Assembly (NCBI GenBank): GCA_963721805.1
Contig: CAVRJY010000001.1
Coordinates: 256,001 to 320,000 of the forward strand
Source: Nitrospirota bacterium
Lineage (GTDB): Bacteria > Nitrospirota > Thermodesulfovibrionia > Thermodesulfovibrionales > JdFR-86
Direction: 5' to 3'
Length of the DNA stretch: 64,000 bases
Shown: in pieces, positions 1,232 through 33,529 of the stretch
Layout: each line of letters starts with the position of its first letter
How positions within the stretch are numbered: position 1 is the stretch's first letter
The notes under the pieces: generated by a model
Told to the model about the DNA's origin: nothing
The model's input: only the letters and a program-made list of their open reading frames with translations
The model's database searches: none
Made by a program: the position numbers and the translations under genes

Positions 1232-2548
1232 TTATTTGTCACGCGACGTAAGTTTTTCCCTCAGATTCTCCACGGGATAAAACAGCATCTTATTGCCCGA
1301 CTTGCGCATCACAAGCAGGCCCAAGGCCTGAAGACCGAGCAGGTCGTTTCGGCCGGACTGGTAGACAACTCCGTGCACGCGAGAATGCGTCGTGAAGTCA
1401 TAGACTTCATTGGGATTATCAATGGCGCTCGCAAGCAAGGCCCTTTGGCGTGTGTTCAGCGTGGGGTAGCGGCTCAAGAACACTGACGCTTCGCGCTTTT
1501 CGCGCTCCTTGCGGTCGATGTATTCGTTCATGTCATTGACAGCTTCGCGTATAGCGCCGAGGTTGAAGTGCACAAAATAGGTCATGTCATTGTCGTCAGC
1601 TTCGGAGTAGAGGAGCGATTTATAATATTGAATGCGCTTGCGTTTGATGGCGTCAGAGATGGCCAGATACTTAAAAAGCCAGTACCGCTGCCTGAGCATA
1701 TACCAATAAAACAGCGCCCGCGCAACGCGGCCATTCCCGTCCATATACGGGTGAATCCACACGAGCCAGAAATGCAGTATGATCCCCTTAATTGCTGGGT
1801 GAACGAACCCTCCGGAGTTGCTGTCATCATTGGCGAAATTACATAGTCTCCGCATTGCGTCCGGCACCGCATCGGGCCGAGGCGGGGTATATAATACGAC
1901 GTGGTCCTCTATGTCATGGACCTCATTTTGCTCTGTCCTCAGGCGGCCCTCCCACGAGGGGTCATCGAGTGTCCCACGAGATATCTCGGCATGGAGCTGG
2001 TTTATGAGTTCAATGCTCAGTGACTCTCCCTTCATTCTCGTGATCAATTCGATGGTCTTGTAATTGTTGAAGATCATGCGCTCGCCATAGTCCTTTGGAT
2101 CTCGGCCCGAGCGCAGCATTTCCTTTGCTGCCGTGCGCGTAGTCACTGCACCCTCGATCTGGCTTGAGGCTATTGCCTCCTCTGCAAGCGAGCGGATCAT
2201 ATATCTCTCTCGCTCAGCACGAAGGGATTCCGCGTCCTCTGTGAGTACAATCCCTCCAGCATTGCGGTCGATGAGGTGGAGGTTTTCTGCCATAGCTGGA
2301 GTGACTATATAACTGAACGATACGTCACCTGAGAAACTAATATGTTGCCTGTTGGGTGCTCGGTCGATTTTAAGTCTTGCCCAAGATTCCTCGGGTGAAA
2401 ACCCTTCTGGTATCGGTTTATATTTAAAATCGTCCCAGTACAAATAATCGCTGTTTGCCCTAGCTATCAGAGAGTCCAGAGCAGGGGTATCCAATATCTT
2501 CCCCGATACATATTCTGTCCATCTCGGCGGCCGCTCTGGAAGTTTCAT
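1232..2548 (-). CDS. Fic-domain protein with N-terminal inhibitory motif and probable C-terminal winged HTH
   Basis: HPYMDGNGRVAR Fic motif; SSQIEG matches (S/T)xxxE(G/N); GGAGGGAG RBS; visibly lower GC than flanks. Confidence 0.9.
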   Translation of the reverse strand: MKLPERPPRWTEYVSGKILDTPALDSLIARANSDYLYWDDFKYKPIPEGFSPEESWARLKIDRAPNRQHISFSGDVSFSYIVTPAMAENLHLIDRNAGGIVLTEDAESLRAERERYMIRSLAEEAIASSQIEGAVTTRTAAKEMLRSGRDPKDYGERMIFNNYKTIELITRMKGESLSIELINQLHAEISRGTLDDPSWEGRLRTEQNEVHDIEDHVVLYTPPRPDAVPDAMRRLCNFANDDSNSGGFVHPAIKGIILHFWLVWIHPYMDGNGRVARALFYWYMLRQRYWLFKYLAISDAIKRKRIQYYKSLLYSEADDNDMTYFVHFNLGAIREAVNDMNEYIDRKEREKREASVFLSRYPTLNTRQRALLASAIDNPNEVYDFTTHSRVHGVVYQSGRNDLLGLQALGLLVMRKSGNKMLFYPVENLREKLTSRDK

Positions 2549-2624
2549 ACTCCCTCCTGACTATAAAAACTAATTTAATTGGTTTTAGTATTACATGAAG
2601 GCGATGCCAAGGTCAAGGGAGAAA

Positions 2625-2734
2625 TACTAATTTAGTAGATTTTAGTAATAAGTTAGTAGTTCCTTAAAAAACAAGTAGTTGTGGAAGTTAGAACCTCAAT
2701 TACTAATTTTCTACTAAAATCTACTAAATTAGTA
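2625..2734. repeat. Perfect 23-bp inverted repeat built from phased TTAGTA/TACTAA units
   Basis: TACTAATTTAGTAGATTTTAGTA (2625-2647) and its exact reverse complement (2712-2734). Confidence 0.9.
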
Positions 2735-2770
2735 ATTGGTAATCCTGCCCCCGTGCTGTTAATATTATCG

Positions 2771-31384: not shown

Positions 31385-32404
31385 ATGGACCTGAAAAAAC
31401 GGGGATTCCAGCTTCCCGAGAAGATGAGGTTCGATGAGGATACCCTCACGGACACATACGGCAAGCTCATTGCCGAGCCGCTCGAGCGCGGCTTCGGCAT
31501 AACTATAGGCAACAGCCTCAGGAGGGTTCTGCTCTCCTCAATAGAGGGCGCGGCGGTCACCGCTGTGCGCTTCGGCAGCGTCATGCACGAGTTCACCCCG
31601 ATACCGGGCGTGAAGGAGGACGCGGTCGACATAATCCTCAACGTCAAGGGCCTCGAGTTCGCGATGGACGGGCTGGCGCGCTCCAGGACCGCGACCGTAA
31701 AGGTCAAGGGCCCGGCCGTCGTCACCGGCGCGGACTTCCAGCTCGACCAGGCCGTGAGGCTCCTTAACCCCGAACGCCATGTCGCCACCGTGGACAAGGG
31801 CTCGGTCTTCGAAGGCGAGCTCTACATCGAGAAGGGCACCGGGTACGTCGAGGCCGAGTTCAACATGGACGAGGAGTACCCCGTCGGCGTCATCCCGATC
31901 GACAGCAACTACAGCCCGGTCAAGAAGGTCAATTTCACGGTCGAGAAGGCCCGCGTCGGCCGCTCCACCGACTTCGACAAGCTCATCCTGGAGGTCTGGA
32001 CCAACGGGGCCATAACCCCGAAGGCCGCGATCTCTCAGGCCGCATCGATCATCATCGAGCACATGGGATTTTTCGTGTTCGAGCACGGCGAGGAGGGCGC
32101 GGAGCCCGATATGCTCGTCTCGAAGGGCATGCACCAGGAGGCGATCTTCAACGAGAACCTGCTTAAGAGCGTCGAGGAGCTCGAGCTCTCCGTGCGCGCC
32201 CACAACTGCCTCAAGAACGCCGACATAAAGACCATCGCCGACCTCGTCGAGAAGAGCGAAAACGAGATGCTCCGCACCAAGAACTTCGGCCGCAAGTCGT
32301 TAAACGAGATCAAGGAGATCATCAACGGCATGGGCCTGGACTTCGGGATGCGCGTGGACCGCGAAGCCCTCGAAAAATACAAGGAGAAAACCAATGCGTC
32401 ATAA
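31385..32404 (+). CDS. rpoA: RNA polymerase alpha subunit
   Basis: EPLERGFGITIGNSLRRVLLSS, LSVRAHNCLK, NFGRKSLNEI. Confidence 0.99.
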   Translation: MDLKKRGFQLPEKMRFDEDTLTDTYGKLIAEPLERGFGITIGNSLRRVLLSSIEGAAVTAVRFGSVMHEFTPIPGVKEDAVDIILNVKGLEFAMDGLARSRTATVKVKGPAVVTGADFQLDQAVRLLNPERHVATVDKGSVFEGELYIEKGTGYVEAEFNMDEEYPVGVIPIDSNYSPVKKVNFTVEKARVGRSTDFDKLILEVWTNGAITPKAAISQAASIIIEHMGFFVFEHGEEGAEPDMLVSKGMHQEAIFNENLLKSVEELELSVRAHNCLKNADIKTIADLVEKSENEMLRTKNFGRKSLNEIKEIINGMGLDFGMRVDREALEKYKEKTNAS

Positions 32405-32798
32405 AGTGGCCGGAAAGCTGTTCCACAGGACGGCCAACCAGAGGAAGGCCCTGCTGAGGTGCCTCGTCTCGAGCCTGTTCGAGCACCAGAGGATCGAGAC
32501 CACGGTCTCGAAGGCACGCGAGACCCGCAAGATCGCCGAGCGCCTCATCACGCTGGGCAAGCGCGGCGACCTTCACGCGAAGCGCACCGTAATGGCATCG
32601 ATCCCGAACCGCAAGCTCATGGTAAAGCTGTTTGACGAGATCGCGCCGCGCCTCATGGACCGTCCGGGCGGCTACCTGCGCATCATCAAGACCCGCGTGC
32701 GCGTCAACGACTGCTCCGAGATGGCCGTGCTCGAGTTCGTAGACTTCGAGAGCATCCGCGAGGCCGCCGCCAAGCCCGCCGCCAAGAAGGAAGCCTAG
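32394..32798 (+). CDS. rplQ: 50S ribosomal protein L17
   Basis: MRHK, IETT, RPGGYLRI. Confidence 0.98.
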   Translation: MRHKVAGKLFHRTANQRKALLRCLVSSLFEHQRIETTVSKARETRKIAERLITLGKRGDLHAKRTVMASIPNRKLMVKLFDEIAPRLMDRPGGYLRIIKTRVRVNDCSEMAVLEFVDFESIREAAAKPAAKKEA

Positions 32799-32800
32799 AG

Positions 32801-32971
32801 CTGAATACCAACGACCTCGTAACGATTCTCTTAGTCGTGGGCGTGTACATCGCGATGAGGGTCGTGCTCAGGAAGATGGGAGTGCCGACCTGAGGCGCGA
32901 GCACGGGGCCGGTCGGCCCCTCAGGTAAGGGCAATAAAGGTTGCTGCCCGATGCCGCCCAGCAAGAAATAG
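32801..32971 (+). CDS. Candidate small single-TM selenoprotein (in-frame TGA 32891-32893); 30 aa if TGA is a stop
   Basis: (M)NTNDLVTILLVVGVYIAMRVVLRKMGVPT-TGA-GASTGPVGPSGKGNKGCCPMPPSKK-TAG; hairpin 11 nt after TGA; terminator only after the TAG; start codon uncertain (CTG). Confidence 0.5.
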
Positions 32972-32990
32972 CTTAATCAGCCGCTCTACG

Positions 32991-33018
32991 GCCGCTCCCG
33001 CAAGGGGGCGGCTTTTTT
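32991..33018 (+). terminator. Rho-independent terminator of the alpha operon
   Basis: GCCGCTCCC-GCAA-GGGGGCGGC-TTTTTT. Confidence 0.85.
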
Positions 33019-33085
33019 GTTGAGTGAGCGGCTTAACTCAGCAGGCCGGAATCTGGTATATTATCCCTTAAAGGAGACACGAGAA

Positions 33086-33529
33086 ATGAACTGCAGGATA
33101 TCCCTTATAGGCGCCATCATTTTAGCCGCAGCGGTCCTGTCCGCAGCCGGTGCGTCCGCGCAGGACAAGGCCAATTTCAAGGACGGGATGTGGGAGATCA
33201 CCTCTACGATGACGATGGAGGGGATGGCCATGGGCTCGCAGACCAGCACCGTCAAGCAGTGCATGAAGTCCGACAACCCCGTGCCAGCGAACAAGAACAG
33301 CAACTGCAAGATCGACAGCCTCAACATAAGCGGCAATACCGTGGCATGGAAGATGACCTGCGATAACCCGCAGGGCGGCAAGGTCCAGAGCAACGGCAAG
33401 ATGACGTACGAAAACGGGACGAGCTTCTACGGGACGATGGAGACGAGCTTCGCCGGAGCCCAGCAGGAGATGAAGATGCAGAGTGACATGCGGGGGCACT
33501 ACGTCGGGCCCTGCACGAACGGGAAGTAG
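33086..33529 (+). CDS. Exported DUF3617-like protein
   Basis: Signal peptide; GMWEITST...QC...C...WKMTC...G.YVGPC; AAGGAG RBS. Confidence 0.8.
   Translation: MNCRISLIGAIILAAAVLSAAGASAQDKANFKDGMWEITSTMTMEGMAMGSQTSTVKQCMKSDNPVPANKNSNCKIDSLNISGNTVAWKMTCDNPQGGKVQSNGKMTYENGTSFYGTMETSFAGAQQEMKMQSDMRGHYVGPCTNGK

Follow-up and report, generated by a model that had tools for sequence, protein, structure and literature searches.

A putative single-pass membrane selenoprotein encoded behind rpoA-rplQ in a Nitrospirota bacterium, and the uncatalogued family to which it would belong

The window analysed here is a stretch of 64,000 nucleotides (nt) from a Nitrospirota bacterium, lying at C1:256001-320000 of a 2.78 Mb genome in 9 contigs (G000). 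At positions 32801-32971, immediately behind the ribosomal-protein gene rplQ, it carries a short open reading frame (ORF) that is interrupted by a single in-frame TGA. From sequence comparison we read this ORF as a genuine gene whose product would be a single-pass membrane selenoprotein of 56 residues, diverging from the other members of a large uncatalogued family, and put the probability of this reading at roughly 0.82. The TGA of the family very probably specifies selenocysteine (Sec, or U). Even with its CTG start and divergent sequence, the window copy itself is likely to be made as protein.

The frame from CTG 32801, separated from the rplQ stop by a 2-nt spacer (AG), reads LNTNDLVTILLVVGVYIAMRVVLRKMGVPT, TGA, GASTGPVGPSGKGNKGCCPMPPSKK (25 codons) and TAG, giving a product of 56 residues. 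A sequence-only reading of the same DNA had described an ORF starting 2 nt past the rplQ stop, one hydrophobic helix running into RKMGVPT and TGA, and 25 further open codons, and we find each of these in place. The hairpin that it placed exactly 11 nt beyond the TGA, GGGGCC-GGTC-GGCCCC with a G-first loop, is present at 32905-32920. Around the TGA, where it saw a possible alternative stem (CCTGAGG/CCTCAGG), the minimum free energy fold pairs ACCUGA (32888-32893) with UCAGGU (32921-32926), and the UGA therefore sits in a lower stem. The operon terminator that it saw past the TAG is likewise there, as a terminator-like hairpin and T-run at 32990-33019; the terminator scan taken alone is weak, since shuffles average 0.9 such sites in the same region. 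The features of the locus are as follows.

32394-32798, + strand: rplQ (ribosomal protein L17), final gene of the rpoA-rplQ unit, with stop TAG at 32796-32798, from the ORF table
32786-32793, + strand: possible Shine-Dalgarno-like site, GAAGGAAG, 7 nt ahead of the CTG, as read from the letters
32801-32890, + strand: codons 1-30 of the small gene, with CTG start, acidic N-terminus, one hydrophobic helix and RKMGVPT; family hidden Markov model E 2.3e-16
32891-32893, + strand: in-frame TGA, read as Sec; a conserved codon in homologues, with cysteine (Cys) at that place in others
32888-32926, + strand: element resembling a selenocysteine insertion sequence (SECIS), with lower stem 32888-32893/32921-32926, upper stem 32905-32910/32915-32920 and loop GGUC 32911-32914
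32894-32968, + strand: 25-codon tail GASTGPVGPSGKGNKGCCPMPPSKK with Cys47-Cys48, from translation of the frame
32969-32971, + strand: true stop TAG, read from the sequence
32990-33013, with T-run to 33019, + strand: terminator-like hairpin of 10 pairs, 8 of them G-C, then TTTTTGTT

A first translated search with the window peptide gave 39 match rows, of which 11 in other genomes, carrying both motif and TGA, were taken forward; two further loci, L021 and L032, proved on inspection to be non-homologous. The matches taken forward are weak. In common they have a hydrophobic helix that leads into P-[RK]-[LM]-G-[VI]-[PS]-T, followed by TGA in frame at the equivalent place, and relatives begin with ATG, GTG or TTG at the equivalent start. 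The profile of an alignment of twelve sequences from the window's order (A1) detects the family in 189 of the 251 genomes sampled from that order, and the codon is TGA in all 150 matches listed (43 further rows lie outside that list). In 21 of 29 fetched order loci the gene stands directly downstream of rpoA-rplQ, as located by tblastn with the rplQ protein. The eight loci lacking an rplQ neighbour, from one family of the order, are L051-L053, L055, L058, L059, L064 and L065; in L055 (~1522-2759, minus strand) the small gene follows tpiA-secG, a housekeeping unit ending in a small membrane protein gene.

The family extends well beyond this order. A word-indexed protein search returned 111 matches, some 95 of which are ORFs of 29-30 residues ending in G-x-x-T, implying that gene callers halted at the TGA; one longer match, P0087, has 62 residues and carries Cys in place of the TGA. 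An exhaustive profile search of a library of 1.84 billion proteins recovered 704 representative proteins or clusters at E <= 0.001. Among 22 longer database homologues that were fetched, the TGA position is held by Cys in 16, Trp in three (P0129, P0175 and P0218), Gly in two and Ser in one, and C-x4-C is found in 12 of the 16 Cys forms. In the Trp forms, the source pipeline may have translated TGA under a table in which it stands for Trp, instead of reading a true TGG. The ESM Atlas gave only a 123-member cluster with no name attached. A chance ORF beside a chance hairpin in the 3' region of rplQ might be entertained for the window alone, where the reading frame is brief and the fold of the single sequence gives a modest statistic. 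This explanation is, in our judgement, refuted by the comparative data, given the profile match at the window (E 2.3e-16) and the 704 database relatives.

The Cys-form alignment (A2), scanned against one genome per species, matched 468 stretches, 356 of which encode relatives; all counts for "other-phyla loci" below refer to the best 80 of these 356. Their records are labelled Deltaproteobacteria/Desulfobacterales, Candidatus Obscuribacterales/Melainabacteria, Acidobacteriota, Planctomycetota and Syntrophales metagenome-assembled genomes, and one of the 80 comes from an isolate, Desulfatitalea alkaliphila M08but, whose locus, L119, is of the U-x4-C form. The aligned codon is TGA in 77 loci, TGC in two and TGT in one, the three Cys-codon loci being L071, L121 and L128 (the last at a contig edge). 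rplQ adjoins none of the 80. Two classes were sampled more densely. The family occurs in 26 of 151 genomes of the class of G254, with TGA in 34 of 35 rows, and in 64 of 151 genomes of the class of G406 (Acidobacteriota), with TGA in 67 of 68 rows; the tallies for the latter include G540, a genome flagged as unpublished, and become 63/150 without it.

Across phyla the members share a single helix followed by P-[KR]-[LM]-G-x-x-T and the in-frame TGA, in products of 44-60 residues. An alignment of 45 sequences (A3) has a gap-free core comprising an acidic residue near the N-terminus, an aromatic residue, an invariant Leu-Gln, a Pro and a Gly, then Thr, U or C, four variable positions and C; the common form is ..LQxxxLP[KR]LG-x-x-T-U-x4-C. 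The N-termini are short and acidic, reading M-[SNT]-[DE], and the seven residues before U together with the first 12 of the tail carry a net charge of +2.4. With an acidic N-terminal and a basic C-terminal flank, the positive-inside rule predicts an N-out/C-in topology that would place Sec at the membrane-cytoplasm interface. The tail beyond Sec is charged and probably disordered, and would carry the Cys that partners Sec. A complex prediction for two copies of the Cys form (A2) scored 0.02 against a mark of 0.42, a result that carries no weight either way.

Judging from the alignments, the Cys has moved to the C-terminal end of the protein in the window's order. A Cys occurs in the tail at 28 of the 29 order loci, compared with 11 of 58 control frames, and in 24 of these 28 the first Cys is at +13 or +14 from the Sec position, usually as the last or penultimate residue. 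The earlier proposal of a 56-residue membrane peptide bearing Sec and a Cys-Cys pair therefore stands in its first part; the Cys-Cys does not hold up as a conserved feature, since only one Cys is retained in relatives, at +5 in some and close to the C-terminus in others.

The codons beyond the TGA carry the argument that it is translated. U-x4-C is present in 76 of the 77 other-phyla loci with TGA. Among 75 distinct sequences, Ser at codon +2 is written TCN in 24 and AGY in 11, Ser at +4 is AGC in 15 and TCN in 14, Arg past the TGA uses both CGN and AGR, and Cys at +5 is TGC in 46 and TGT in 28. Such switches between synonymous codons and codon families indicate selection on the protein rather than the RNA. 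The frame stays open past the TGA for 11-65 codons in the other phyla and for 13-25 codons in 28 of 29 order loci, ending in any of the three stops; the remaining order locus (L067) runs off its end. The sequence-only reading had looked for homologues with TGA or Cys at the aligned place and for conservation past it, and had named homologues ending at VPT with TAA or TAG among the observations that would tell against it. The first two are what we see, the TGA or Cys codons of all 80 other-phyla loci and the Cys in 16 of the 22 fetched homologues supplying the one, and the U-x4-C motif, the codon-family switches and the Cys-bearing order tails the other; TAA or TAG was found in none of the 150 order matches listed and in none of the 80 loci from other phyla.

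Were the TGA a genuine stop, the product would be a hydrophobic peptide of 30 residues (29 in relatives) and the hairpin an RNA stability or regulation element. The roughly 95 distinct forms of 29-30 residues reported by gene callers are what such a peptide would look like, and a hairpin past a stop codon could indeed have other roles. We nevertheless regard this as very improbable: the position is TAA or TAG in none of the listed order matches or the 80 other loci, the downstream codons are under protein-level selection with the in-frame Cys at +5 almost invariant, Cys codons replace the TGA with homology continuing beyond them, and in the class of G254 the gene tracks SelA. In that class the TGA form is found in 25 of 151 genomes and SelA above cut-off in 31. 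SelA accompanies the TGA form in 24 of the 25 (the exception is G391), seven SelA-positive genomes are without the family, and the TGA form occurs in one of the 120 SelA-negative genomes, among which no Cys form was found. SelA was detected in 7/7 other Sec-form genomes tested, and was not seen in two of three Cys-form genomes, which are possibly incomplete. These counts come from related, non-independent genomes and are descriptive rather than statistical tests. SelA is nearly universal in the window's order (59/61) and in the class of G406 (145/151), so that these two sets cannot discriminate co-occurrence.

The hairpin past the TGA is conserved along with it. On its own, the window element is modest and lies only weakly beyond chance: the fold has -27.5 kcal/mol over 56 nt (z = -2.2) and is equalled by 7 of 200 shuffles. 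The SECIS of E. coli fdhF has a GGUC loop and an 11-nt spacing. When the comparative data are added, the hairpin lies far beyond chance. Of 106 TGA loci, 97 have a contiguous stem of 5 bp or more that begins 8-16 nt past the TGA and closes a 3-8 nt loop; mononucleotide shuffles average 19.4 such loci and never exceed 33. All 97 have a G in the loop (GGUC in 27, AGGU in 14, GGG in 10), and their stems are of 60 distinct sequences. Because the codons past the conserved Cys form the hairpin, the residues that they encode vary by clade, for example SVEQ, QVT and DVGSRR.

A covariance model built from 12 sequences of identical geometry, the window among the seeds, was run over 481 kb of loci and gave 56 matches at E <= 1, with 53 at the expected TGA; the window hit, itself that of a seed, scores 34.7 bits. 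In the model-fitted alignment 97.1% of cells pair, compared with 73.6% after shuffling (0 of 500 shuffles reach 97.1%) and 28-55% in slid controls. Compensatory changes on both sides occur in 5 of 6 pairs, with 73 double-change cells against 22.4 in shuffles. Fitting the alignment to the model inflates this covariation somewhat; the 60 distinct stems are independent of the model. The bacterial SECIS (bSECIS) criteria of PMC13188914 include a UGA-to-loop spacing of 16-37 nt. bSECIS scoring had been put forward as a check on the window, and the window passes it, with a G-first loop of 4 nt (GGUC), 6 bp, a spacing of 17 nt and a bare hairpin of -12.5 kcal/mol. Scored on the bare upper hairpin, a stricter measure than the energy of the whole element used in the published criteria, 54 of 107 loci satisfy all four constraints; shuffles give 2.7, and 6 at most.

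The host genome contains the machinery that a SelB/SECIS gene calls for. The sequence-only reading had remarked that the window holds no sel genes, and had proposed checking the genome for selA, selB, selC and selD; none is in the window, and all four lie elsewhere in G000. SelA is matched at E 1.7e-146 by a gene on C2 and SelB at E 7.8e-114 by a gene at C1:575289. A tRNA-Sec (selC) with anticodon tca was found by aragorn at C1:1472357-1472453, and selD, at C1:1484881-1485801 (L002), itself has an in-frame TGA (..LASCSG-U-AAKYS..). As a positive control the selD SECIS is unusable as a template, since no simple hairpin of the small-gene geometry is seen past its TGA. On the preferred reading, SelB carrying Sec-tRNA(Sec) would bind the hairpin 11 nt past the UGA at 32891-32893 and insert selenocysteine, translation would run on for 25 codons to the TAG, and the small gene would be cotranscribed with rpoA-rplQ, ending at the terminator at 32990-33019.

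Several observations weigh against this reading, above all for the copy in the window, whose divergent helix and tail and CTG start are our main caveat. The warning about the CTG given in the sequence-only reading stands: no canonical start (ATG, GTG or TTG) preserves the helix, and the other in-frame GTG and ATG codons (32837, 32843 and 32855) would remove it. Two genomes of the same family, G008 and G005, have an ATG overlapping the rplQ stop (ATGA), a start that the window copy lacks. In the window helix, ..AMR-VVLRKMG.., the otherwise invariant Gln and Pro are replaced or absent, and its U-x16-CC spacing is unlike the conserved ones. Within the family to which the window belongs, just 3 of 10 genomes match the profile of the small gene, and G001 has no homologue downstream of rplQ; the gene is therefore dispensable or decaying in this lineage. 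Rfam matched no family in window 32700-33100, giving sub-threshold, unrelated matches only.

Such features are what would be expected if the family were real and the window copy poorly expressed or decaying, yielding little or no protein for want of a canonical start, since the helix is retained with CTG alone. We judge this unlikely. Both parts of the window frame are intact, and the window SECIS is the strongest of its geometry class, combining a stem of six G-C pairs with a GGUC loop at a spacing of exactly 11 nt. The position of the Shine-Dalgarno-like GAAGGAAG 7 nt before a CTG that is itself 2 nt past the rplQ stop would favour coupled re-initiation. In the nearest genus, G006, the start is TTG and the helix diverges in the same way: in A1 both it and the window copy have Arg for Gln, no Pro and a one-residue helix deletion. 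Another order member shows a different departure, L151 (G008) reading ..LPRLGVRC-U-GSG.. after rplQ, with Cys in place of the Thr before the TGA and hence a Cys-Sec dipeptide.

Considered together, these data support assignment of the ORF to a canonical SelB/SECIS-decoded gene and to a new, very widespread micro-selenoprotein family. It resembles canonical SelB/SECIS genes, as represented by E. coli fdhF and the bSECIS consensus of PMC13188914, in its in-frame UGA, the hairpin just downstream with a small, G-first apical loop, a spacing of 17 nt within the published 16-37, its Cys homologues and the Sec machinery of the genome. It differs from fdhF in belonging to a new protein family, in being far smaller (44-60 residues) and in lacking an Rfam match.

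We found no existing name for the family. Neither the window protein nor 11 Cys forms matched Pfam (2025 copy) or NCBIfam (release 20.0); a Pfam scan of 45 family members gave nothing relevant, and the NCBIfam scans gave chance-level matches to unrelated models only (e.g., nanA, E 0.018). Table 1 of a 2026 review of the prokaryotic selenoproteome lists 119 selenoprotein families and subfamilies (PMC13188914), and no single-helix U-x4-C family is among its entries. The hypothetical-protein families of that table carry Pfam or NCBIfam identifiers, and those libraries gave no hit. In the passages covered, the deep-Sep and BSepDB papers and the Haft preprint contain nothing like it; their supplementary tables are outside this statement and may list it under another name. 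Full-text literature searches found no paper on the family.

Parallels in size are the tiny Sec-tail families KCU-star/DUF466 (NF033934), UXX-star (NF041114, NF041211) and SaoC (NF040734), named in Table 1 of PMC13188914 and in the Haft preprint; like these, the present proteins are tiny, have Sec close to the C-terminus and are cut short in databases. The motifs of those families (CU, UXX-COOH) are unlike the T-U-x4-C seen here, and none of the families is described there as a single-pass membrane peptide. No NCBIfam model for a curated small selenoprotein (KCU-star, UXX-star, SaoC, the Tso families, GOS_B/C, DG/DW/DF) matched. Membrane selenoproteins for thiophilic cargo include, in Table 1 of PMC13188914, a MerT-like putative mercuric transport protein (PF02411), the SO_0444 Cu/Zn efflux transporter (NF033936) and YeeE/YedE (PF04143). 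These likewise have Sec in or at the membrane and contexts of sulfur or soft metals, but they are multi-helix transporters, whereas the family described here has one helix and no detectable homology to them. The YgaP-like transmembrane (TM) domain (PF11127, formerly DUF2892) is also a small membrane module with Cys or Sec and a genomic tie to rhodanese. Identity with it was rejected: hhalign with a YgaP-like neighbour gave a probability of 0.2%, and none of the 45 members matches PF11127 even at E <= 10.

Eukaryotic SELENOK and SELENOS have a single-pass anchor, a disordered cytosolic tail and Sec near the C-terminus, and in SELENOS the Cys partner of Sec is ~14 residues away. This distance resembles the U-x12/13-C of the window's order, and we claim no sequence relationship. 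In contrast to SELENOK and SELENOS, Sec comes first and Cys last, the SECIS lies in the coding region rather than the 3' untranslated region, and the proteins belong to another domain of life. The FeoB-associated Cys-rich membrane protein (PF12669) likewise has an N-terminal helix and a short Cys-bearing cytoplasmic tail; the motifs differ, PF12669 is to our knowledge not a selenoprotein family, and the Pfam scan gave no match to it.

For clues to function, the nearest ORF on each side of the 80 other-phyla loci was scanned (153 ORFs). A rhodanese-domain gene adjoins 19 of the 80, in records labelled with three different phyla. The neighbours were grouped as follows.

Metallo-beta-lactamase + rhodanese: L079, L093, L104, L112, L127
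Pyr_redox_2 + dimerisation domain + rhodanese: L088, L100, L108, L109, L111, L120, L143, L150
Rhodanese + YgaP-like TM: L111, L115
Rhodanese alone or doubled: L074, L082, L106, L140, L149
DUF302: L096, L127, L136, L148
TauE: L089, L136, L144
ArsR-type regulator: L076, L090
Pyr_redox_2 protein of ~400-420 residues: L072, L077
DsbD parts: L071, L104, L120
AhpC/redoxin: L097, L103, L144
P-type ATPase: L114, L148
ArsA: L088, L128
NicO: L085, L124
Extracytoplasmic function (ECF) sigma factor, directly downstream: L078, L110, L119, L122

We take the neighbouring rhodanese fusions to be the persulfide dioxygenase and coenzyme A (CoA)-persulfide reductase types of sulfide-detoxification operons, an assignment that favours a membrane-tethered selenol or thiol passing sulfane sulfur. 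From gene context, a membrane-tethered Sec/Cys relay of sulfane sulfur is the function that we tentatively place first. In such a relay the Sec/Cys pair would accept sulfane sulfur and pass it on through selenenylsulfide or seleno-persulfide chemistry, with rhodanese-type sulfurtransferases and sulfide- or persulfide-oxidising enzymes as possible partners. A more specific proposal, which we regard as speculative, is an obligatory selenol relay at the inner membrane face, moving sulfane sulfur (or selenium) between membrane sulfide-oxidising and rhodanese-fusion enzymes in a widespread, overlooked family. On that proposal, the rarity of Cys forms (Sec in 77 of 80 loci; among the SelA-negative genomes in the class of G254, no Cys form) would mean that cysteine is inadequate for the role. 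The neighbour themes are mixed, taking in P-type ATPase, ArsA, NicO and a chromate transporter too, and the gene order in the window's own order, after rplQ or secG, carries no information on function; both points detract from a sulfur role. Soft-metal binding would be the next most likely function after a sulfane-sulfur relay, and is itself improbable; the peptide might also be a small subunit that regulates a membrane complex or helps to assemble it.

If the assignment is right, the bacterial selenoproteome gains a new family that is very common, perhaps one of the most widespread and one that has been overlooked, with proteins of 45-60 residues whose architecture is analogous to that of SELENOK and SELENOS. 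They would be among the smallest selenoproteins and, by the 2026 inventory in Table 1 of PMC13188914, the first bacterial single-pass membrane-anchored one. Since annotation pipelines skip the gene or cut it to 29 residues, selenoproteome sizes would be undercounted for whole phyla, the groups concerned being the Nitrospirota-like order, Acidobacteriota, Melainabacteria, Planctomycetota and Desulfobacterota. The near-exclusive use of Sec, with linkage to rhodanese, persulfide-dioxygenase-like and CoA-disulfide-reductase-like fusions, would offer an entry into the membrane handling of reactive sulfur and selenium.

Further observations concern surrounding genes. In the four Desulfobacterales-labelled loci L078, L110, L119 and L122, the ECF-type sigma gene starts at or inside the end of the tail (~2628), a start perhaps over-extended by the ORF rule; this adjacency hints at a regulatory link in that clade. 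In the window, the next gene after the small ORF encodes a DUF3617 protein (33086-33529, + strand) with a signal-peptide-like start, and as it has its own promoter-like site at 33033-33062 it probably lies outside the alpha operon. The rplQ of L152 (G003) has a long C-terminal extension of K/Q/D/E/T/P-rich repeats (..KKQDAKKPDAKKQETKK..). Finally, an identical stretch reading ..GKELQKSPGA-TGA-DQGPVQWG.., with a hairpin past the TGA, occurs at least seven times in G000, always outside the window (C1:387799, 627133, 786989 and 897302; C2:367655 and 397603; C6:59151), and is probably a repeat or the end of an insertion sequence rather than a selenoprotein.

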